Below, in pieces: positions 55-64,000 of a stretch of 64,000 nucleotides of DNA. The notes below the pieces were generated by a model. That model searched no databases, was not told the origin of the DNA, and saw nothing but the letters and a program-made list of their open reading frames with translations. Position numbers and translations under genes: made by a program. Within the stretch, counting starts at the first letter, position 1; every line of letters begins with the position of its first letter. The DNA comes from Candidatus Parcubacteria bacterium (GTDB lineage Bacteria; Patescibacteriota; Minisyncoccia; UBA6257; HR35): positions 78,642 to 142,641 of the forward strand of contig AP024681.1 of assembly GCA_025999335.1 (NCBI GenBank), given 5' to 3'.

Positions 55-543
55 TTAAATTTTTAATAAGTATATTATACTTTTTGTTTTAGCTTTCAAT
101 TTTTTAAAAAATTTATGAGAGTAAAAATTATCTACTTTAATTTCTATTCTAAAAAATTGCCTTCGTGTTTTAGATAATTTTTTCTTGAAATATTTTTTTA
201 AATATTTAATCACTTTAATGCCTATTCCCTGATCTCTAAATTGTTTATCAAGATAGATCAAACATAAATCTACATACTTATTACTAATATAAGTATGCAC
301 CATACCAATATTAGAATTATTTTTTTTAATAATAAAATATAAATTATTTTTATCTTTAAATTTGGTTAGTAAAATTTTAGCTAATTTTATTTTATTGAGC
401 TTAATATCTTCAAATTCATAAAAATAATTATAAATGTAATCAATTAAATTATTTAATAACTGTTTATTTCTGCGAACTTCCGACAATAATATTTTTTTAA
501 CAATAATATCAGAATTATTTAATTGCTTTTGATAATTTTTCAT
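55..543 (-). CDS. GNAT family N-acetyltransferase
   Basis: 162 aa; acetyl-CoA binding motif RDQGIGIKVIKYL (Q/RxxGxG) typical of GNAT fold. Confidence 0.55.
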   Translation of the reverse strand: MKNYQKQLNNSDIIVKKILLSEVRRNKQLLNNLIDYIYNYFYEFEDIKLNKIKLAKILLTKFKDKNNLYFIIKKNNSNIGMVHTYISNKYVDLCLIYLDKQFRDQGIGIKVIKYLKKYFKKKLSKTRRQFFRIEIKVDNFYSHKFFKKLKAKTKSIIYLLKI

Positions 544-576
544 AGTATAATAATATAAACAATAATATAAACAATA

Positions 577-780
577 ATGTCGTTAATTAATTTTAATATA
601 ATTTCAATAATGAGCAAAATTAATCTCAATACAGCAATTAGAAAATGGTCTAAAGGAAAAAAGTATAATGGCTTTCATCCTACAGGTTATAATGATATTA
701 ATTGGCAAACAGTAAGAAAATTAGAAAAATTGGCAATGTTTAACTCAACTAAATGCTGCGCTAGTGGTACTTGTGACTAA
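577..780 (+). CDS. Candidate RiPP precursor peptide (Cys/Ser/Thr-rich C-terminal core ...FNSTKCCASGTCD)
   Basis: 67-aa ORF ending 16 nt upstream of a DUF4135-like ORF on the same strand; C-terminal 11 residues contain 3 Cys, 2 Ser, 2 Thr; no obvious SD, alternative starts at M12 or M54. Confidence 0.3.
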   Translation: MSLINFNIISIMSKINLNTAIRKWSKGKKYNGFHPTGYNDINWQTVRKLEKLAMFNSTKCCASGTCD

Positions 781-796
781 AAATTAATCTATCTTA

Positions 797-2314
797 ATGT
801 TTGAGATTTTTTATCAAGATCATTTAGAATTTTTTAAAAATAGTCTTAATAAACATATAAATCATCGTATTCTAAACAATAAAAATCTCTTTATTGAACA
901 TATTCTTAAAAATGTAATCAAAAATTTAGATAAAGTTATAGCGCCTATTGTTTGCTGGCAATTATATTTAGATAAAAGTAATAATCTTATCAAAGGCATA
1001 ACTAGTTACGAAAGATTCCAAAATTTTCTTAAATCAAGAAAAAATTCTTTACTTAAGATTTATAATAATATTGACAAAATAATAACTAATTATCTTACTG
1101 AAGAAGAATTATTTATAAAACAAATTCTTGAAATAGTATCTAAAAATTGGCGCCAAATTGATAAAATTTTTAATATTCACGCTCCTCTTTTGTATTTTCA
1201 AGAACCCACATCAAGCGATAGACATTATCAAGGCAAAAGAACAATCTTTTTAAAATTTAAAAATAATAAAATCATCAAAATTAAACCTTTCCTCTTTAGC
1301 TGTCAACCATTATTTTACGCAATTTTAAAAAAATTTAATCAAGACAACAGTCACAAATTAAAAATTACTCTTAATATTCAAATAGATAATTTTTGGTTTT
1401 CAGAATTTATTCCTGTACAAAATAAAAACATCAACATCCAATCAGCGGAAATATTTTATAAAAAATTAGGTTGCCTTTTTGCTTTAACTTTTGCTTTTAA
1501 CGGTTCTGATTATCATATGGAAAACATCATTGCTTCTAAAACAGATCCTGTAATAACGGACTCGGAAACGTTTTTTACTAATTATAGTATTTATAAAAAT
1601 AAAAAATTAATTAATAGTCTTTTAAGCACAGGTTTTATAGAACGTTTAACGAAAAATTCACCAACAAGCGCTATTTGGGGAGGCAATAAAAAATTGCTCA
1701 GCTTAACCCAGCCGATTATTATCAACCCCAACACAGATAAAATGAGATTAAAGTTTAAAAGTTTTAGTAAAATTTTACCTAATAATAGAATTTTTAAAGA
1801 TAATAAAATTTTATGGCAACCACAAAAATTCAAAAAGCATATTCTGCAAAGTTTTCAAGAAACCTATTTATGGATTATCCGAAACAAAGAAAATATACTC
1901 AATCTTATTGATAATTATCAACAACCAATTTTTACACGAGTTATCTTAAGGAAAACATCTTTTTATGCTATTTTAATTCAACACATTCTCCAACCAATTA
2001 ATTTACCTTTATCTCAATTCAAACTTAAATTAAAACACGCTTTTTATCAAAATAGTCAAAGATTCCATAATAATTACAAAAATTTTTTATTTAAAAAAAT
2101 CATCGCCTATGAAATAAACAATATCCAAAAAATATCTATCCCTATCTTTTGGCAAAATATTAAAGAAAAACATCTTTATCTAGGCGAAGAAAAATACAAA
2201 AATTTTTTTCCTAAAACAGCTTATGAATTACTAAATGAAAAATTACAAACAATGAATAATCGTCAATTACAATACTACCTTCAAAAAATTAATAATTATT
2301 TATCGCCTAAATGA
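797..2314 (+). CDS. Stand-alone LanM-type dehydratase-domain (DUF4135-like, kinase-fold) protein; no LanC cyclase domain
   Basis: 505 aa; blocks GKRTIFLKFKNNKIIKIKPF, NFWFSEFI and FNGSDYHMENIIASKTDPVITDSETFF resemble the remembered DUF4135 consensus (vYKPr / GWxEFv / TDlHfENiIA..PvlIDlEtlF) and the DxHxxN catalytic loop of the kinase-like fold. Confidence 0.5.
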   Translation: MFEIFYQDHLEFFKNSLNKHINHRILNNKNLFIEHILKNVIKNLDKVIAPIVCWQLYLDKSNNLIKGITSYERFQNFLKSRKNSLLKIYNNIDKIITNYLTEEELFIKQILEIVSKNWRQIDKIFNIHAPLLYFQEPTSSDRHYQGKRTIFLKFKNNKIIKIKPFLFSCQPLFYAILKKFNQDNSHKLKITLNIQIDNFWFSEFIPVQNKNINIQSAEIFYKKLGCLFALTFAFNGSDYHMENIIASKTDPVITDSETFFTNYSIYKNKKLINSLLSTGFIERLTKNSPTSAIWGGNKKLLSLTQPIIINPNTDKMRLKFKSFSKILPNNRIFKDNKILWQPQKFKKHILQSFQETYLWIIRNKENILNLIDNYQQPIFTRVILRKTSFYAILIQHILQPINLPLSQFKLKLKHAFYQNSQRFHNNYKNFLFKKIIAYEINNIQKISIPIFWQNIKEKHLYLGEEKYKNFFPKTAYELLNEKLQTMNNRQLQYYLQKINNYLSPK

Positions 2315-2709
2315 ATCTGCTTGTTTGCTTTACTAAATTGCCAATTAAAAATAATAAAAATAGACAACGCCAAACTATCAGCGATTAAACAATAATAACA
2401 AAAATTGCCTAAAATAAAAAATTGAACATAAATTAAATAAAGAGCAAAAATAAACCCTAAAGTAGTTATAAAAATTTTTATTCTCATCAACTTTTGACTA
2501 GTAAATAAAAATAGAAAGAAAATAACAACAAAATATATTACACCTAATAAAGCAACATTAATACCTAAAAATTCAGAATATTCGCTCTTAATAACTAAAT
2601 TACAACCACTAAGGCCACAAGCAACGCCTTCGCTTTGAGAGAGATAAAGAAGATAAAGTGAAATTAAAATACCTAATCCCGACAGAAATAAAATTACTTT
2701 TTTTGTCAT
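2296..2709 (-). CDS. VKOR-like (vitamin K epoxide reductase family) membrane thiol-disulfide oxidoreductase
   Basis: 137 aa, 4 predicted TM helices; loop Cys pair ACGLSGC (C-x4-C) after TM1 and CYYC (CxxC) at start of last TM helix; overlaps 3' end of DUF4135 ORF convergently. Confidence 0.45.
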   Translation of the reverse strand: MTKKVILFLSGLGILISLYLLYLSQSEGVACGLSGCNLVIKSEYSEFLGINVALLGVIYFVVIFFLFLFTSQKLMRIKIFITTLGFIFALYLIYVQFFILGNFCYYCLIADSLALSIFIIFNWQFSKANKQIHLGDK

Positions 2710-2746: not shown

Positions 2747-3361
2747 TTAATAATGTTTTAATATTTGTCTAACTATCTTTTTTAAAGCAAAATAGCGATG
2801 ATTAATTTGTTTATGCTCGTCAATATCTAAATCAACATAATATTTTTTAAATTTACTTACTATAAACAACGAACGAAAGGGATAGCCTTTAATCATTTTT
2901 TGAGATGGTTGTTTAGCTATTTCGCCTTCTGTCTTAGCTTCGCTAAATAAAATTAAATCACGATGGCTATCGTAAAAAACTAAAGTTGTTGTTAAATATG
3001 CTTTTCTTTCTTTGCCTTCGGCTTTATGCATTTTTTTCAAAGTATACTCTATCAATTCTTCATCGCTCATTTCGTATCCCGCCCATCTTTTTGATTTTAC
3101 GCCTGGTTCATTATTAAGATAAGGAATAACTAAACCACCGTCATCAGACAAAACAGGTAATTGCAATAATTCTGAGTATTGCTTGCTTTTTAATAAAGCA
3201 TTTTGGAAAAATGAATCCCCATTCTCTTCAACTACATAATTGACTTTTAAATCAATCAAAGAAGAAATATTAAATTTTTCTTCTAATAATAAATGAAACA
3301 AATATTCCTTTATTTCCTTAGCCTTGCCTTGATTATGAGTACCTATAACTAAATGATTCAT
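2747..3361 (-). CDS. rdgB: Non-canonical purine NTP pyrophosphatase (Ham1/RdgB family)
   Basis: 204 aa; N-terminal LVIGTHNQGKAKEIKEYL matches the Ham1 ATGNxGKxxE motif. Confidence 0.7.
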   Translation of the reverse strand: MNHLVIGTHNQGKAKEIKEYLFHLLLEEKFNISSLIDLKVNYVVEENGDSFFQNALLKSKQYSELLQLPVLSDDGGLVIPYLNNEPGVKSKRWAGYEMSDEELIEYTLKKMHKAEGKERKAYLTTTLVFYDSHRDLILFSEAKTEGEIAKQPSQKMIKGYPFRSLFIVSKFKKYYVDLDIDEHKQINHRYFALKKIVRQILKHY

Positions 3362-3381: not shown

Positions 3382-4593
3382 TTATTCGTAACGCAATGCT
3401 TCAATGGGATCTAATTTAGCGGCTCTTTTAGCTGGATAATAACCAAAAATCAAACCAACAGAAACAGAGACGGCTATAGATATAATAACTGCTTGCATCG
3501 AAACATAAGTGGTAATATTGGCAAAACGACTAATTAGAATAGATATTACCACTCCTAATATTATACCTATAAAACATCCAAAGGAAGTAATAATAATCGA
3601 TTCTAAAATAATTTGACGAAGAATATCGCTGTTTTTAGCGCCGAGTGCCTTACGCAAGCCTATCTCTTTTGTTCTTTCAACAACACTAGTAAGCATCATA
3701 TTCATAATACCAATACCCCCAACTATTAAAGATATTCCCGCAACAAATGATAAAAATAAAGTAAAAGTATTAATAATCGAAGTTAGAGTTGCTAAAATGT
3801 CTTCCTGAGAAAATACCGAAAAATCTGGTTCGTCAACTTTGTGTAACTGCATTAATCGTGAAGTTACTGCCTGCCTTACATAATCTATGTTATTTTTAGA
3901 ATTAACCTTCACAGCAATGCTATTAAAATATTCATTGCCTGATAATTGTTTTTGCATTACCGAATAAGGAATAATGATAAAGTCATCATAATTAACAAAT
4001 CCAGCTGAACCTTTTGCCGCTAAAACGCCTATAACTTTAAAATTAACACCTCTAATACGTATTTTTCTATCAATTGGGTCTATATCGTTAAATAAATCTT
4101 TAGCTATTTGATTACCCAAAACAGCAACCTTTGCATAAGATCTTAATTGTTCATCATTAAAAATAGACCCTTTATCAATTACCATATTCCTCACTACAAA
4201 AAATTCTTTACTGCCACCTAAAATAATAGTATTTCTATTATTCCCAACATCAGATATTACTTGAAAACGTCGTTGAACTTCTGGAGATATGGCTTCAATT
4301 TCAAGAATATCGCGAATAGCTTCAATATCATCTTTTTTTAAAACTTGCGCATCACCTCGCCCACTAGAAACAAAACCTCTTCCTGGTTGGACAACACCCG
4401 GAAATATTATTAAATTATTTGAACCTAAACTTTCTATACTCCTTTGAATACTAATTTTTGAACCTTCGCCTAATGATATCATTGAAACAACAGCAGCAAC
4501 GCCAATCATAATACCTAAAATAGACAACAAGGTCCGCAACTTATTGCTTCTTAAAGAATCTAAAGACTCATTAACTAAATCTTTAATTCTCAT
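3382..4593 (-). CDS. ABC transporter permease, MacB/FtsX family
   Basis: 403 aa; N-terminal TM helix, large periplasmic domain, C-terminal FtsX-like 3-TM bundle; translationally coupled (4-nt overlap) to upstream ABC ATPase. Confidence 0.75.
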
Positions 4594-5303
4594 TTATGAT
4601 ATAATTGTTTTCTGTTAATTACTTTCATATCTTCAACTTTTTCACCATCCTTAATTTTAATAATTCTCTCTGAATGTTTGGCTACATCTTCTTCGTGAGT
4701 AATCAAAATTACCGAGATATTTTTTTCGCTATTTAGTTTTTGTAAAGTATGCAAAACAATTTCACCTGTTTTAGTATCCAAATTACCTGTTGGTTCATCA
4801 GCTAAAATTATTTCTGGATCATTCATTAAAGCTCTAGCAATAGCAACTCGTTGCATCATACCCCCAGATATTTGATTTGGCTTATGATATATAAAATCTA
4901 AAGGAAAAGCTGTTGCTTGTAGACATTCTAAAGCCTTTTCCTTTCTTGCTTTAAATGATAAATAATTATTAGCATACAAAGATGGTAAAATTACATTTTC
5001 TAAAACATTTTTTCTTGAAAGTAAAAAGAAAGCCTGAAAAACAAAACCTATTTTTTTATTTCTAATATCAGCTAATTCGTTATCATTCAAAAGACTAATG
5101 TCTGTATTTTCTAAAAAATATTTTCCACTTGTTGGTTTTTCTAAACAACCTAAAATGTGCATTAAAGTTGACTTACCAGAACCAGAAGGCCCCATAATAG
5201 CTATAAACTCGCCTTTTTTTATTTCTAAAGATATATTCTTGACAGCAACTGTTTCAAAAGCGCCAGTTTTATATATCTTAGTAATATTTTCTAACTTGAT
5301 CAT
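4590..5303 (-). CDS. ABC transporter ATP-binding protein (MacB/LolD-like)
   Basis: 237 aa; Walker [10 protein letters not shown], signature [15 protein letters not shown], Walker B ILADEPT. Confidence 0.85.
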
Positions 5304-5313
5304 TAAAAGTTGT

Positions 5314-7068
5314 TTATCTATTTCGCGAATTATTAGTTGTCGTTGTTCTACCAGTAAATTGTCGAGGATTGGGCATTAATCGCTGAAACAATCCTTGACT
5401 TTGAGTAAGGGTTGTATTATTGTTATCTATTTTCTTTAAGATAAAAATATCGTTTTCTTTCAAACCATCAATAATTTCAGTAAAACGATTATCACTAATA
5501 CCTGTTTTGATAAAAATTTTTTTAGGTTCAAAATTTAACTTAACAGGACGTTCAGAAATATTACTTATATTATCTTTCTCATCAGGAACTAAAATAAATT
5601 TTTTATTATTTAAAGATTGAATAGCGTTATTAGGCACAACTAAAATATTATCTTTTATTTCAACGATAATTTCCGCATTAACTGTCATTCCTAGTTTTAA
5701 CTTATTGTTATCGGGCAATGAAATTTTAACTTTATAACTAACAACTCCTTGATTAACATCACCAACATAATCAATGCTTAAGACTTTGCCTTCAAGTTGT
5801 AAATTCGGTTCAGCATCAAAAGTTAAAATTGCTTTTTGACCAACTTTTACTGAAACAACATCAACTTCATTTAAATCTAATTCAGCAATTTTTTGATCAG
5901 AGATAATATTATAAATAGCGCTACCACTATTTATTAAATCATTAACATTGTAATACTTTTTCTGAATAATTCCGCTTAAAGGAGCGTAGATATTATAATC
6001 TTTTAAATCCTCTTTTAAATCTTCTAAATCTTGTTGTGCTTTTTTTAACTCATTGTTTAATTTTTCAATATTTTTCTTTTTTTGTTCAATAGTATTTTTC
6101 ATTGTCTCAATATCCAACGATTTAGAACGCAAAGAATCATTGTAATTATTTAAAGTTTGCGACATTACTGCTAATTCATCGTTGTATTTTGTGTATTTGT
6201 TATATATACTATTTAAAGTTGTAAAATGCTGCTCAATAATATTTTGTTTAGCGTGCAAGGATTGATTAAAAATTATATCATTTTTTAGTTTAATAATAAT
6301 ATCTAAAATATCTTTAATAAAATTCTGGTTTTTTAAAACAAAAGCATAAGTTTTATCAATTAAGTCTTTATTAAAAACATTGCTTTGATATTTTGTTGTT
6401 TGAAAATTGCTATATAGATCATCAAACTCTTTTTTTAGACTATCTTTATTGCGTCTTAAATTATCACTTAAATTTTTATATTGCGGAAAATAAAAAAGAT
6501 AATAATCTATATTATCAAAATTGCTATCTAAATCTTTATTAAAATATATTCTGTCAATACTATTAAAATCATTAGCGTACTGAGAATAAAAATCTGATAA
6601 AGTTTTTAATACTAATTCATATTTCTTTTTTATGTCATCGCCTCTTTGTAGTTGCTCATATTCTAGCAGTATTTTTTGTAAACTAATATTAGAACTTTGA
6701 ATATCTAAATTACCAATATCGATATTTTTCTTTATGTCTTCTATATTTTTTTCTATATTTCTAATATTTCTTTTCACTGAAGTATCATCTATTGAAACTA
6801 TCAACTGACCATTTTTTACATAATCTCCTTCTTGCGCTCCTAAATAAACTAACTTCCCGCTCACCAATGATTTTACTAAAAAACTATCAGAAGTTGTCAC
6901 ATAACCAGAACCTGATACTATTTTTTGAATTTTATCTCTTTTAACCCTGTCTAAAATATACCCTTCCGGAGATTTTAGCCCTCGTTGAAAATAAAAATAG
7001 TATCCTAAAGCTAACAATAATATCACAGACAAAAAAATAAAAAATTTATTAAAAATAATTTTTCTCAT
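5314..7068 (-). CDS. HlyD/MacA-family periplasmic adaptor (membrane fusion) protein with extended coiled coil
   Basis: 584 aa; N-terminal TM anchor, biotin-lipoyl-like halves flanking an about 300-aa coiled-coil/low-complexity segment, C-terminal beta-barrel region; operonic with ABC ATPase and permease. Confidence 0.7.
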   Translation of the reverse strand: MRKIIFNKFFIFLSVILLLALGYYFYFQRGLKSPEGYILDRVKRDKIQKIVSGSGYVTTSDSFLVKSLVSGKLVYLGAQEGDYVKNGQLIVSIDDTSVKRNIRNIEKNIEDIKKNIDIGNLDIQSSNISLQKILLEYEQLQRGDDIKKKYELVLKTLSDFYSQYANDFNSIDRIYFNKDLDSNFDNIDYYLFYFPQYKNLSDNLRRNKDSLKKEFDDLYSNFQTTKYQSNVFNKDLIDKTYAFVLKNQNFIKDILDIIIKLKNDIIFNQSLHAKQNIIEQHFTTLNSIYNKYTKYNDELAVMSQTLNNYNDSLRSKSLDIETMKNTIEQKKKNIEKLNNELKKAQQDLEDLKEDLKDYNIYAPLSGIIQKKYYNVNDLINSGSAIYNIISDQKIAELDLNEVDVVSVKVGQKAILTFDAEPNLQLEGKVLSIDYVGDVNQGVVSYKVKISLPDNNKLKLGMTVNAEIIVEIKDNILVVPNNAIQSLNNKKFILVPDEKDNISNISERPVKLNFEPKKIFIKTGISDNRFTEIIDGLKENDIFILKKIDNNNTTLTQSQGLFQRLMPNPRQFTGRTTTTNNSRNR

Positions 7069-47854: not shown

Positions 47855-48706
47855 ATGAATTTAATTTTTCAAGCTCTAGGGTTGCTGGGCGACATTGTTG
47901 TCGTCTGGTTTGTGCCCATTCTTGGCGTCGCTATCGCGGCGCCGGTTCTGGCGGTTGTAATTGCCGCCAATAATTCGGTTGGCGGGGGGATTGTTCTTAC
48001 TATCGCTGCCCTTCTGGCATGGGCTTGCGCCGTCCGCCAGATGTGGTGGCAGATGTGGGCGTGTCTGGCGGCACTTTTGCCGCTGGCCGCGCTGGCATTC
48101 ACCGCGCCTCTCTGGGCCCGTTACTGGGCCCTGGGTCTCCAGGCTCTAGCTCTGGGGATTCTTTTTATCGTCCCTGGAGCTATCTGGCCCTCTGCCCGGG
48201 CGGTTTTTTGGGTTTGGCTTGTCGCTGGAGTCGTCCTCACCGCCATTCTCGCCGGTGGAGTTTTCACCGGCGGAGCGGTGGCGGTTGTGCTCCTAGGTCT
48301 TCTTCTCCTAGGAGCTGGAGCGATCCTTTTCTCCCAAGGAGCCCGGCCTTGGGAAATCCGGCGCGCTCAGCGCCAGACCGCAAGGGTCCTAACTGGTCTC
48401 GGCGTTGCCGCCCTGGCAATCGGGCTTTTTAGCCCGGTTGTCAGGAATTGGCAATTGCCCGAACTTCGGGCACCGGCGCCCATCGCCAATATGTGGGCCT
48501 ATTTGTCGGCTCACACAGAGAAATGGGCGCTAAGTGCCCAAAGGGGTCTACTCGGCGAGCGGGCTAAGACCAGCTCGCTTGAGGAGATGGGGGAAGCTGC
48601 ACAGCTGGCTCACAAAGCCCGCTGGAAGCGGCTCATCACCCAGGTTCCCGATGCTCCTCCTTCGCGGGAGGAATGGCGGGATCTGGGGATCCCTCAAGAT
48701 CCCTAA
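47855..48706 (+). CDS. High-GC-encoded multi-pass membrane protein of unknown function (compositional island)
   Basis: 283-aa Ala/Leu/Gly/Val/Trp-rich ORF with about 6 predicted TM helices plus about 100-aa soluble tail; strong SD aaggagg 8 nt upstream; body about 60+% GC, with the CTG/CTC Leu and CGC/CGG Arg codons that the rest of the window lacks. Confidence 0.6.
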   Translation: MNLIFQALGLLGDIVVVWFVPILGVAIAAPVLAVVIAANNSVGGGIVLTIAALLAWACAVRQMWWQMWACLAALLPLAALAFTAPLWARYWALGLQALALGILFIVPGAIWPSARAVFWVWLVAGVVLTAILAGGVFTGGAVAVVLLGLLLLGAGAILFSQGARPWEIRRAQRQTARVLTGLGVAALAIGLFSPVVRNWQLPELRAPAPIANMWAYLSAHTEKWALSAQRGLLGERAKTSSLEEMGEAAQLAHKARWKRLITQVPDAPPSREEWRDLGIPQDP

Positions 48707-48720
48707 CCATCCCCCAACCG

Positions 48721-48754
48721 CCCGCAGCCCTCACGCAGAGCTGCGGGCTTTTTT
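48721..48754 (+). terminator. Rho-independent terminator (GC-rich hairpin + T-run)
   Basis: cccgcagc...gctgcggg stem (8 bp) followed by cttttttatttt, 15 nt after stop of the high-GC ORF. Confidence 0.75.
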
Positions 48755-48891
48755 ATTTTTAAAATTTCATCTCTGAAGAATATTCCAACATTCTTAAGAA
48801 TGTGAGAATGTTATTTTATCAAATTTAAGAGCTGCTGATTTTTCTTTTTGAAATCTAAATCAGCGTTAATCCGCGTATATCAGCTTTACTT

Positions 48892-49518
48892 TTAAAACTT
48901 CACTTCTGGAGGTTTTTCTGCTGTTTCTTTTTCCTCGTAGTTTAATTCAAAATATTCAAAAGAAGGAAATTTAAAAAGATTAGCAATAACTGAATTTGGG
49001 AAAGATTGACGATAAGCTTCGTATTCTCTCAAAACCGCATTATAAAATCTTCGGCTGGCTTGAATTTTATCTTCAGCGTCAACTAATTCTTGCTGAAGAT
49101 GTAAAAAGTTTTGATTAGCTTTTAAGTCTGGATAATTTTCAGCAACGGCAAATAAAGACTTTAAAGCTGAAGTTAACATATTGTCCGCCTCAAGCCCTTC
49201 TTTAACTGTCTTTGCTTCTAAAATTTTACTTCTAGCTTCAGTTACTTTTTCAAAAACTTCTTTTTCATGAGCAGCATAACCTTTAACAGTTTCAATTAAA
49301 TTAGGAATCAAATCAGCTCTTCTTTTTAACTGAATTTCAATATCGGAAGAAGATTCTTTAACTTGCTCTCTTAAACGAATTAACTGATTATAAATTAAAA
49401 CTAACCAAATAAATAAAGATACAGCTAAAGCTACAATATTAAATTGCCATTCAACTATATTAAATAAACCACTGGCAATTATCAAAACGAAAATTATTAA
49501 AAATAAAGAGTTAATCAT
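48892..49518 (-). CDS. LemA family protein
   Basis: 208 aa; N-terminal TM, YNQLIRLREQV, RRADLIPNLIETVKGYAAHE, AVAENYPDLKANQNF, ASRRFYNAVLREYE match LemA conserved blocks. Confidence 0.8.
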   Translation of the reverse strand: MINSLFLIIFVLIIASGLFNIVEWQFNIVALAVSLFIWLVLIYNQLIRLREQVKESSSDIEIQLKRRADLIPNLIETVKGYAAHEKEVFEKVTEARSKILEAKTVKEGLEADNMLTSALKSLFAVAENYPDLKANQNFLHLQQELVDAEDKIQASRRFYNAVLREYEAYRQSFPNSVIANLFKFPSFEYFELNYEEKETAEKPPEVKF

Positions 49519-62965: not shown

Positions 62966-63036
62966 TGTCCCTAGGAGGAATCGAACCTCCATATCAGCCT
63001 CCGCAGGGCTGCGCTTTTCCTTTAAGCTATAGGGAC
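62966..63036 (-). tRNA. tRNA, anticodon read as GCG (Arg), 71 nt, no encoded CCA
   Basis: hand-folded cloverleaf: acceptor GTCCCTA/TAGGGAC, D-stem GCTT/AAGC, anticodon stem CAGCC/GGCTG with loop CTGCGGA, T-arm GGAGG-TTCGATT-CCTCC, discriminator A. Confidence 0.6.
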
Positions 63037-63325
63037 ATTAATAAAATAAATAATAGCTTACAATAAACCAATACATTAAATTAATATATCCTTTCCCTAA
63101 TTAACTTCAAATCTATTTTATCAAAAATTCTTGAAATTTACTAATTTACTTACCAATAATAGCTTAATAAAAACTAACTAACTTATGAACAAATTAATAA
63201 AATGCATAAAATAATCTTTATCTATATAACAAAAACGCTTTAGAGAATTTATTTTTTTATAAGTTAGTGTTAAAATTTCCTTAAACATAGTTTATCCTGT
63301 CGCAATTATAATCGTAATTATAATT

Positions 63326-63745
63326 ATGAAAATATATTTCGCTGGTTCAATACGCGGCGGTAGAAAACATCAAGCTATCTATCAACAACTAATTGCATAT
63401 CTTAGTAAATATGGTAAAGTTTTAAGCGAACATATAGGTAGTAAAAATTTAACTCAGTTTGGAGAAAAGTCTTTTTCTGATAAACGAATTTATAATCGTG
63501 ATATGTCCTGGCTTAAAGTCTCAGATGTTGTTATTGCTGAAGTTTCTACGCCATCTCTTGGTGTTGGCTATGAAATTGCAAAAGCGGAAAATATGAATAA
63601 AAAAATTTTATGTTTATATAGAAAACAACCTCGCAAAAGATTATCAGCAATGATTAATGGAAATCCCAATGTTAAAATTGCTGAATATAAAACATTTAAA
63701 GATGCTTTGCGCTATATCGATATTTTTTTTAAAGAATTAAAGTAA
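63326..63745 (+). CDS. 2'-deoxynucleoside 5'-phosphate N-hydrolase (DNPH1/Rcl-like, nucleoside 2-deoxyribosyltransferase fold)
   Basis: 139 aa; IYFAGSIRGGR...YGKVLSEHIG...DVVIAEVSTPSLGVGYEIAKA...KILCLYR...LSAMI closely parallels the DNPH1 sequence as remembered. Confidence 0.7.
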   Translation: MKIYFAGSIRGGRKHQAIYQQLIAYLSKYGKVLSEHIGSKNLTQFGEKSFSDKRIYNRDMSWLKVSDVVIAEVSTPSLGVGYEIAKAENMNKKILCLYRKQPRKRLSAMINGNPNVKIAEYKTFKDALRYIDIFFKELK

Positions 63746-63844
63746 TAAATTCTGCTTATTAATTTATTAGAATGTAAAATTAATATCAACTCAAAACTGA
63801 TTAGTAAATAATAAACTTAAAAACATTAAAGTATTTTATCCAAG

Positions 63845-63918
63845 TGGACTCGAGGGGATTCGAACCCCTGACCTCCGGTGTGCAAAACCGGTGCTCTAGC
63901 CAACTGAGCTACGAGCCC
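63845..63918 (-). tRNA. tRNA-Ala (anticodon TGC), 74 nt, no encoded CCA
   Basis: GGGCTCG acceptor with G3:U70, anticodon loop TTTGCAC, T-loop TTCGAAT, discriminator A. Confidence 0.8.
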
Positions 63919-63933
63919 TTCTTAAAAATAAAG

Positions 63934-64000
63934 CGCCCCCAACCGGAATCGAACCGGTATTTTCACCTTGAAAGAGTGATGTCCTAACCTTTAGACGATG
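63934..64000 (-). tRNA. tRNA-Glu (anticodon TTC), 5' end truncated by window edge
   Basis: D-arm TCGTCTAAAGGTTAGGACA typical of tRNA-Glu, anticodon loop CTTTCAA, T-arm ACCGG-TTCGATT-CCGGT, acceptor 3' half TGGGGGC, discriminator G. Confidence 0.6.

Follow-up and report, generated by a model that had tools for sequence, protein, structure and literature searches.

Dehydratase domains excised from the class II lanthipeptide synthetases (LanM) CylM, HalM2, and NukM suffice for dehydration (PMC10676384), and EmbM, which consists of a LanM dehydration domain alone, is the sole maturase of the phospeptin pathway (Paoli et al. 2022, PMC9259500). The phosphate-elimination residues of EmbM are mutated and its product carries phospho-Thr (PMC9259500); the EmbA pathway is without the Cys needed for macrocyclization (PMC12639078). 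In class Va lanthipeptides, the (methyl)lanthionine [(Me)Lan] rings close without any cyclase, and a Dhx-Dhx-X-X-Cys motif (Dhx, dehydrated Ser or Thr) in cytolysin S cyclizes spontaneously and stereoselectively (PMC11186320). Here we describe a locus in a 64,000-nucleotide (nt) stretch of DNA, hereafter the window, from the 680-kb metagenome-assembled genome (MAG) KatS3mg097 of Candidatus Parcubacteria, in which a gene for a small Cys- and Ser/Thr-rich peptide is followed by a gene for a stand-alone LanM-type dehydratase. We are confident that the two form a precursor/dehydratase pair of a ribosomally made, post-translationally modified peptide (RiPP), and with a probability of roughly 0.6 the product is a lanthipeptide-like RiPP that derives from class II and is made without LanC. 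Positions 55 to 2314 of the window probably constitute a three-gene RiPP module, with a GNAT-family protein beside the precursor peptide and the stand-alone class-II-type dehydratase.

The peptide and its stand-alone dehydratase

The initial annotation of this stretch, which took the genome to be of the Candidate Phyla Radiation (CPR) type, as the Parcubacteria source bears out, described a 67-amino-acid (aa) open reading frame (ORF) with a tail of Cys, Ser, and Thr and, 16 nt later, a 505-aa ORF with motifs of the LanM dehydratase domain. Coordinates, spacing, and quoted motifs were all re-read from the sequence and agree with that description. The 505-aa protein, which is on record in identical form for KatS3mg097, strongly matched Pfam PF13575 (DUF4135; E = 2.2e-47 over residues 92 to 451) and aligned to positions 2 to 519 of the 932 positions of the LanM model TIGR03897, so that the dehydratase half alone is represented; its score of 223.7 bits does not reach the curated LanM family cutoff of 304. 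The C-terminal LanC-like cyclase domain of LanM is absent from the polypeptide, and the enzyme has no domain beyond the CylM dehydratase region. The proposal of a stand-alone LanM-type dehydratase domain is upheld by these matches, and the accompanying claim that no LanM consisting of the dehydratase alone had been described was too strong, EmbM being such an enzyme (PMC9259500).

The eight closest enzyme homologues are 43 to 100% identical to the window enzyme, and all are 496 to 505 aa long. CylM (5dzt; E = 5e-36, residues 134 to 609) and LicM2 were the only solved relatives found with a profile of these eight sequences. A Foldseek search with an AlphaFold2 model of the enzyme (mean predicted local distance difference test score, 72.7; predicted template-modeling score, 0.70) retrieved CylM (E = 8.6e-18; query template-modeling score [TMq], 0.61) and LicM2 (E = 1.1e-17; TMq, 0.65) and, after these two, the VPS34/PI3K lipid kinases. 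As modeled, the enzyme has the lipid-kinase-like fold of the CylM/LicM2 type, and the comparison with CylM that had been proposed as a check yields a match in fold as well as in catalytic residues.

Phosphorylation by CylM involves K274, D347, H349, N352, and D364, and phosphate elimination involves D252, H254, R506, and T512 (PMC4550811). All nine residues have equivalents in the window enzyme: K163, D238, H240, N243, and D255, respectively, for phosphorylation and D141, H143, R381, and T387 for elimination. Among 40 aligned stand-alone enzymes, none departs from the elimination residues D, H, R, and T. Because the nine catalytic residues are present and excised LanM domains are sufficient for the reaction, the window enzyme should be a complete and competent dehydratase, as predicted from its sequence, and not a mere kinase. 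The stand-alone enzymes formed three pure clades in a rough neighbor-joining tree, each with peptide-linked members, a grouping which argues that they are not random truncations of full-length LanMs. An exhaustive profile search ranked proteins of 490 to 520 aa above every LanM of 900 to 1,080 aa.

The 67-aa ORF terminates in LAMFNSTKCCASGTCD. Its true start is most likely the ATG at position 610, which would give a peptide of 56 aa, and not the ATG at 577, since the equivalent Met opens all homologues, gene callers assign 56 aa to the peptide of a relative with 77% identity, and a TATAAT lies at positions 597 to 602. The peptide consists of the leader MSKINLNTAIRKWSKGKKYNGFHPTGYNDINWQTVRKLEKLAMFN, with the box TGYNDI about 20 residues ahead of the core, the core STKCCASGTC, and a tail of a single residue, D. 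The small ORF is kept in all eight of the closest loci, where it is adjacent to the enzyme gene on the same strand in 8 of 8 cases, and the mean column identity of the peptides is 71%. The small ORF recurs in dozens of distant loci as well, and its conservation together with the enzyme is far beyond chance. With this and the strong DUF4135 match, neither of the outcomes that would have refuted the initial annotation was obtained.

The TATAAT sits 7 nt upstream of ATG 610, which suggests a leaderless or near-leaderless peptide mRNA, and TATAAT and ATG are arranged likewise in two related loci (L005 and L008). The divergent region between the GNAT and peptide genes also contains a 12-nt tandem repeat, aataatataaac, in two copies at 549 to 572 with a partial third copy (to 579), inside which the upstream ATG at 577 falls; the repeat may serve as a shared operator. 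A scan for consensus promoters was uninformative in the AT-rich DNA of the window (23 found versus 18.5 expected).

A peptide family across phyla

The family was enlarged by going from a peptide profile to a degenerate DNA probe of the core, run on reference genomes and metagenomes, and then to a profile search of a protein collection. The profile of the eight peptides also retrieved peptides of 41 to 43 aa with different leaders and an identical C-terminal STKCCATGTC, which adjoin stand-alone DUF4135 proteins of 533 to 539 aa (26% identical to the window enzyme) and an MsbA-like ABC exporter. The DNA probe found 17 loci in reference genomes, a collection for which we estimate about one chance match, and 37 loci in metagenomes; it found nothing in viral contigs. 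The match was in frame within a small ORF in all 17 genome loci and in 32 of the 37 metagenome loci. The remaining five metagenome matches comprise four that encode a near-identical peptide without a canonical start codon and one (L036) that looks like a chance match. The window itself is not matched by the probe, its Ser7 being encoded by an AGT codon, so the family is undercounted. In total, the family amounts to about 70 loci and about 120 distinct peptides.

By record title, the hosts are Parcubacteria, Microgenomates, Saccharibacteria, Herbaspirillum, Noviherbaspirillum, Paraburkholderia, Comamonadaceae, Gamma- and Alphaproteobacteria, Nitrospiraceae, and Solirubrobacterales; further hosts are Burkholderiales, including Burkholderia ubonensis, and Helicobacter plasmids. 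Of 60 loci selected by their core, about 45 have a stand-alone DUF4135 gene next to the peptide gene and on its strand. Most of the loci without one are truncated contigs, and an apparent exception (L047) was resolved by Pfam. Divergent enzymes were detected with BLAST, a broader hidden Markov model (HMM), and Pfam, such members having been missed by an HMM made from CPR enzymes only. At the level of sequence and gene order, peptide and enzyme are co-conserved across phyla.

When a collection of 5.8 billion proteins was searched with a profile covering every leader type, 121 peptides were returned, 118 of which have the core [ST][ST]-x-C-C-[AGS]-[ST]-G-T-C. This core holds four Ser/Thr and three Cys. 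Positions 1 and 2 stay Ser or Thr, while position 3 is free (K in 85 peptides, T in 11, R in 7, Q in 7, S in 4, G in 2, and M in 1, with Ala in Helicobacter pylori). At least five dissimilar types of leader surround this one core: the CPR type WKKGKKYxGFHPTGYNEINW; the short GYDELL type; the ISGAxELxEIA type; an NHLP-like type, one peptide of which carries PF02979; and a type whose N-terminal part is short and which carries a C-terminal extension of 30 to 45 aa. The segment WKKGKKYxGFHPTGY of the first type is strikingly conserved and confined to the Parcubacteria clade. Common to all types is a leader box, [ST]G[YFIA]x[DE][LI], about 20 residues before the core, and in some members GG or AG directly precedes the core. 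The family thus shows the features by which a RiPP precursor is recognized beside its maturase, namely, an adjacent, co-conserved small ORF with a variable leader and a conserved core. Seven variants of the peptide were compared with NCBIfam, and none of them is matched by a model.

Outside the CPR, the pair occurs in compact gene orders with an exporter. The order is peptide, GNAT, DUF4135, and ABC in Burkholderia ubonensis (L067, 8001 to 11753), and peptide, DUF4135, and ABC both in Helicobacter felis (L065), on a 10-kb contig with a Rep3 replication gene, and in GCA_044229535.1 (L066). The mobilizable H. pylori plasmids pHPPC4 (L068, 106..3547 of NC_014556.1) and p1HPAKL117 (L069, 3858..7299 of NC_019561.1) encode a 40-aa peptide, a DUF4135 protein, and an ABC transporter, in this order. 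The H. pylori plasmid peptide reads ...TGLDEI...FFFGD-STACCASGTC-D.., its core being STACCASGTC; the gene table of pHPPC4 omits it, and the plasmid enzyme is labeled just 'DUF4135 domain-containing protein'. From its gene content, the module outside the CPR looks like a mobile operon for a secreted, bacteriocin-like peptide. No dedicated exporter is linked to the pair in the CPR members.

The CPR-type leader gave weak matches to ribosomal protein L32e (E = 0.017 in Pfam and 0.0049 in NCBIfam), and three homologues (P0016 to P0018) bear the JGI annotation 'ribosomal protein L32E'. These matches, the conservation of the entire CPR-type peptide and not of its core alone, and CPR loci with neither protease nor exporter would suit a stable cellular protein, for instance one resembling L32e or a Cys protein with metal or redox activity, that is regulated by a DUF4135 kinase and is no RiPP at all. 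We consider such a protein highly improbable. A single 10-residue core is found behind at least five leader types, including the NHLP type (PF02979), with GG-type cleavage sites in some members, and operons with ABC exporters in many taxa and on mobilizable plasmids are the classic organization of RiPPs and bacteriocins. The L32e-like identity of the peptide was rejected, as the scores are far below the cutoffs and the matching region is specific to the leader.

Some copies of the module appear incomplete. Near-identical contigs from rhizosphere metagenomes (L031, L034, L043, and L047) encode GYQKPAYALDDYSGPKTTKCCATGTCSRVG, and no canonical start codon follows the last in-frame stop there. This peptide does begin with a Met in Paraburkholderia sp. 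NMBU_R16 (L027), where no DUF4135 gene was found downstream of the peptide gene, an ABC fragment and a penicillin amidase being present there instead. The rhizosphere and L027 copies may be decaying. A contig with the short leader type (L009, 4468..5964) also encodes ParA/CbiA, UPF0137, and a DUF4116 protein. We take UPF0137 to be the family of the chlamydial plasmid protein pGP6-D, and the contig hints at a plasmid or a Chlamydiota-like host.

The GNAT partner and the surrounding genes

The neighbors of the eight closest loci differ, apart from the upstream same-strand small ORF and a divergent GNAT gene, which is found in each of these loci whose contig extends far enough. When the genes within 5 kb of the peptide gene were clustered, only DUF4135, GNAT, and ABC recurred as families. 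Of 60 loci, which come from several phyla, about 36 have a GNAT gene beside the peptide and enzyme genes. The window GNAT has the acetyl-CoA motif R-x-x-G-x-G as RDQGIG, and an alignment of 11 module GNATs shows the motif R/Q-x-x-G-x-G/A as RDQGIG, RRKGLG, and RNHGVG. These proteins fall into two subfamilies that track the phylogeny of the enzyme, subfamily A being encoded divergently from the peptide gene and subfamily B between the peptide and enzyme genes. They have generic GNAT matches only, and their resemblance to RimI-type acetyltransferases is weak. By its recurrence in these neighborhoods, we take the GNAT to be the conserved third partner of the module. Several RiPP clusters contain GNATs, among them PaeN of paenibacillin, the N-acyl GNATs of goadvionins and selidamides, and MccE of microcin C, which acetylates the processed peptide.

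Lys3 of the core was considered as an obligatory acceptor of the GNAT, a role that is weakened by the occurrence of K, T, R, Q, S, G, M, and A at this position. The four inspected loci with a residue other than Lys3 (H. felis, GCA_044229535.1, and the two H. pylori plasmids) are all without a GNAT, which is suggestive only.

Features of the window are collected in Table 1. In the outline given by the initial annotation, the peptide/enzyme pair stands; the peptide start at 577 gives way to the likelier ATG 610, and the Ham1 gene and the GNAT gene had been overlooked. With the GNAT, that annotation missed a conserved partner, and it missed the large cross-phylum family with its near-invariant core.

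Table 1. Genes and other features of the 64,000-nt window
Feature	Coordinates	Strand	Remarks
GNAT-family N-acyltransferase gene	55..543	-	162 aa; Acetyltransf_1 E = 1.6e-9; divergent from peptide gene
Divergent intergenic/promoter region	544..609	.	66 nt; sequence reading
Precursor peptide gene	610..780 (longest ORF 577..780)	+	56 aa from ATG 610 (most likely start); 67 aa from 577
Stand-alone LanM-type (DUF4135) dehydratase gene	797..2314	+	505 aa; starts 16 nt after peptide ORF
VKOR gene	2296..2709	-	Pfam E = 1.3e-20; carries CGLSGC and CYYC
Terminator-like hairpin	2383-2368	-	Inside VKOR gene
Ham1 gene	2747..3361	-	Separates VKOR from exporter genes
FtsX/MacB gene (MacB_PCD/FtsX)	3382..4593	-	Pfam
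ABC gene (ABC_tran)	4590..5303	-	Pfam
HlyD gene	5314..7068	-	Pfam
GC-island ORF	47855..48706	+	283-aa Ala/Leu/Gly/Trp-rich multi-pass membrane protein
LemA gene	48892..49518	-	Flanks GC-island ORF
Three clustered tRNA genes	62966-64000	-	Sole Rfam gathering-level matches in 64 kb

The locus had further been thought to include a VKOR-type membrane thiol oxidase and, next to it, an HlyD/ABC/FtsX exporter, and a pathway built on this arrangement would comprise VKOR-assisted oxidative cross-linking and export through the neighboring pump. The identity of the VKOR and its convergent overlap with the 3' end of the enzyme gene are borne out; the overlap measures 19 nt (2296 to 2314). VKOR occurs near the pair again in L005, the closest relative, and in L064, and the modules outside the CPR do include an exporter, though of a different ABC type. 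Membership of the unit fails for both components. VKOR is near the pair in three closely related Parcubacteria loci only (the window, L005, and L064), at varying positions and about 5 kb off in L064; it is found neither at five close loci (L001, L002, L004, L006, and L007) nor at any locus outside the Parcubacteria, and five Parcubacteria loci retain Ham1, an unrelated housekeeping gene, in just such residual synteny. The exporter genes do lie where they had been placed (3382 to 7068, minus strand), behind Ham1 and on the strand opposite to the pair, and MacB/HlyD is present at none of the other loci. The model is largely refuted by this missing co-conservation and has very little probability left, and the VKOR and the HlyD/ABC/FtsX exporter were rejected as parts of the module.

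Other observations concern the surroundings of the pair. The overlap of the VKOR and dehydratase genes is an unusually tight packing. At L061, a radical SAM gene (946..2361, minus strand) lies two genes downstream of the dehydratase gene and is a candidate for an additional tailoring gene. A PhyH-family dioxygenase gene is divergent from the peptide gene in Noviherbaspirillum (L021, 5974..6936, plus strand), and likewise in L049 and L050, and is a further candidate of this kind; all these loci are outside the CPR. Far from the module, at 47,900 to 48,800 of the window, there is a sharp island of 57 to 63% GC within a genome of about 26% GC. The ORF of this island has no convincing Pfam family, no Rfam match, and no tandem repeats; the island may stem from a recent acquisition of foreign DNA or from a chimeric assembly.

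Proposed ring formation and comparison with known systems

An HMM of LanC, built from 109 LanM cyclase domains, gave 115 matches in the positive control and none in the 64-kb window or in 64 loci. The absence of LanC from the locus itself, judged on the whole window, accords with the initial annotation, which reported no LanC-like ORF near the pair. The prerequisites of lanthionine formation are present in the Ser/Thr and Cys of the core and in a dehydratase that is predicted to be competent. The enzyme would recognize the leader, probably through the box [ST]G[YF]x[DE][LI] about 20 residues upstream of the core, and would then phosphorylate core Ser/Thr with ATP and eliminate the phosphate to give dehydroalanine or dehydrobutyrine. 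The three Cys would add to the dehydrated residues under the control of the substrate and without a cyclase. Core positions 1 to 5 could form a ring as a Dhx-Dhx-X-X-Cys motif, to which the conserved hydroxyl residues at positions 1 and 2 and the free position 3 are fitted, and Thr7 (or Thr9)-Gly-Thr-Cys10 could close a second, small ring. The product would be a compact decapeptide with multiple thioether bridges. The GNAT might act as an optional accessory enzyme, for tailoring or self-protection, that N-acylates Lys3 or the new N terminus, and in the Proteobacteria and Helicobacter the adjacent ABC exporter would secrete the product.

It is possible, if unlikely, that the rings are closed by a cyclase other than LanC, be it the GNAT-fold protein, the dehydratase as a template, or the product of an unlinked gene, or that the GNAT is an MccE-like self-immunity enzyme. 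In favor of such readings, the GNAT is the only other recurrent partner besides the ABC exporters, and it resembles RimI-type acetyltransferases only weakly. Overlapping rings (1 to 4 and 2 to 5) can be energetically unfavorable without a cyclase, as reported for class Vb (PMC11186320). Several complete operons without a GNAT nevertheless keep the core, so the GNAT is not essential for core maturation, and the dehydratase carries nothing past the CylM dehydratase region that could serve as an extra domain. Moreover, we know of no GNAT-fold lanthionine cyclase.

Several points weigh against a LanC-free, lanthipeptide-like product. The invariance of core positions 4 to 10 was partly imposed by the seeding of the searches (the DNA probe and 5-residue words), and a cyclase could be encoded elsewhere in the 680-kb genome, the negative LanC result covering the window and 64 loci. 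Several complete loci are without a GNAT (Helicobacter, L009/L010, and Saccharibacteria), and its acceptor site is a guess, since Lys3 is not invariant. The ABC exporters of the module are without a C39 peptidase domain, and no candidate for a leader protease emerged. The whole of the chemistry (dehydration, ring closure, and acylation) is inferred; its weak steps are the ring chemistry and what the GNAT does. As for the enzyme, the canonical ATP lysine (equivalent to K163) is missing in 5 of 40 stand-alone enzymes, and the Saccharibacteria enzymes carry DxN where others carry DxH. EmbM shows that such enzymes can stop at phosphorylation, and homology-based predictions for this type of enzyme have failed earlier (PMC9259500).

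The enzymes that are without the canonical Lys or the His of DxH, and the di-phospho-Thr peptide made by EmbM with the same domain architecture (PMC9259500), would be compatible with a phospeptin-like outcome, in which the core Ser/Thr are phosphorylated and not eliminated and a linear, poly-phosphorylated, Cys-containing peptide results. This outcome is quite unlikely. The outcome of EmbM is attributed to its mutated elimination residues, the very residues that are invariant in the 40 enzymes aligned here, and the strict set of three Cys and four Ser/Thr is needed for a thioether product and needless for a phosphopeptide. A lanthipeptide-like RiPP formed without LanC remains our preferred interpretation.

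That the core is near-invariant across phyla speaks for a conserved molecular target or ligand more than for an arms-race antibiotic, as far as this can be read from sequences. Tentatively, the core peptides might form a class of lanthipeptide-like molecules that has gone unrecognized and is cyclase independent, ancient, and horizontally mobile, in which an ultra-conserved, knotted decapeptide made by half a LanM would bind one conserved partner (for example, a receptor, a precursor of the cell envelope, or a metal ion). If so, the retention of the module in CPR genomes of 0.56 to 0.68 Mb and on H. pylori plasmids would indicate a role between symbiont and host or in niche competition, and a new lanthipeptide class or subclass would have been systematically overlooked by LanC-anchored genome mining. 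Large lanthipeptide surveys anchor on LanC-like proteins (PMC7268733), and such mining cannot see these clusters, in which the peptide is often unannotated and the enzyme is labeled 'DUF4135 domain-containing protein'. A 10-residue core that is near-invariant across at least seven bacterial lineages is unusual among RiPPs and implies a conserved target. Ultra-small CPR genomes seldom carry modules resembling those of secondary metabolism, and the present module is also found on mobilizable H. pylori plasmids. The family offers a natural test of whether a LanM dehydratase domain and substrate-controlled cyclization are enough for a multi-ring thioether peptide, and since cultured carriers exist (Burkholderia ubonensis, Noviherbaspirillum, H. 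felis, and H. pylori), the hypothesis is directly testable.

The underlying enzymology has clear precedents, and the peptide family itself is apparently undescribed: neither the family nor a module of DUF4135 and GNAT has an NCBIfam model or a description in the openly searchable literature (subscription-only articles not covered). Among the precedents, the GNATs of known RiPP clusters are likewise small proteins encoded beside a precursor and its main maturase, and the acetyl-CoA motif is intact in those of the present family, which differ in having generic GNAT matches only. Dehydrazole biosynthesis employs a divergent DUF4135 dehydratase outside canonical class II, the LanMbC enzyme CcaM, and its product needs no lanthionine cyclase (PMC10676384). 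Unlike the present enzyme, CcaM requires for its activity a fused class III cyclase-like domain, is leader independent, acts only beside azoles, and co-occurs with YcaO, none of which applies here (PMC10676384).

Class V lanthipeptides of type Va, such as the triantimycins, share with the present system the absence of a LanC-type cyclase, their (Me)Lan closing spontaneously under the control of the substrate (PMC11186320). They differ in being dehydrated by a separate kinase and lyase (LanK/LanY) and not by a DUF4135 enzyme, in clusters that are actinobacterial and often contain LanD/LanX for aminovinyl-methylcysteine formation (PMC11186320). LanK and LanY are not among the recurrent families within 5 kb of the peptide gene, where no dedicated LanK/LanY HMM was run. 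The phospeptin system EmbA/EmbM resembles the present one in a maturase made of a LanM dehydration domain, encoded beside its precursor in an uncultivated lineage. Going by the published description of EmbM, the two are set apart by the invariant elimination residues and the three conserved core Cys of the present family, which in addition has a GNAT, an ABC exporter, or both and is phylogenetically widespread.

The class II LanM enzymes (CylM, LctM, LicM2, and ProcM) have a homologous N-terminal DUF4135 dehydratase domain with a lipid-kinase-like fold and the same conserved phosphorylation and elimination residues, and they act on substrates composed of a leader and a Ser/Thr/Cys-rich core; part of the present core fits the Dhx-Dhx-X-X-Cys motif of cytolysin S. 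In contrast to these enzymes of 900 to 1,080 aa, the present enzyme of 505 aa is without the C-terminal LanC-like zinc cyclase and the N-terminal extension of about 100 residues found in CylM, and it scores under the NCBIfam LanM cutoff. The present system also has no LanT-type C39 protease-transporter, and its core is near-invariant across phyla, whereas class II cores are hypervariable. On these sequence comparisons, the system would, in the way it works, most resemble a class II lanthipeptide pathway from which the cyclase has been taken away.

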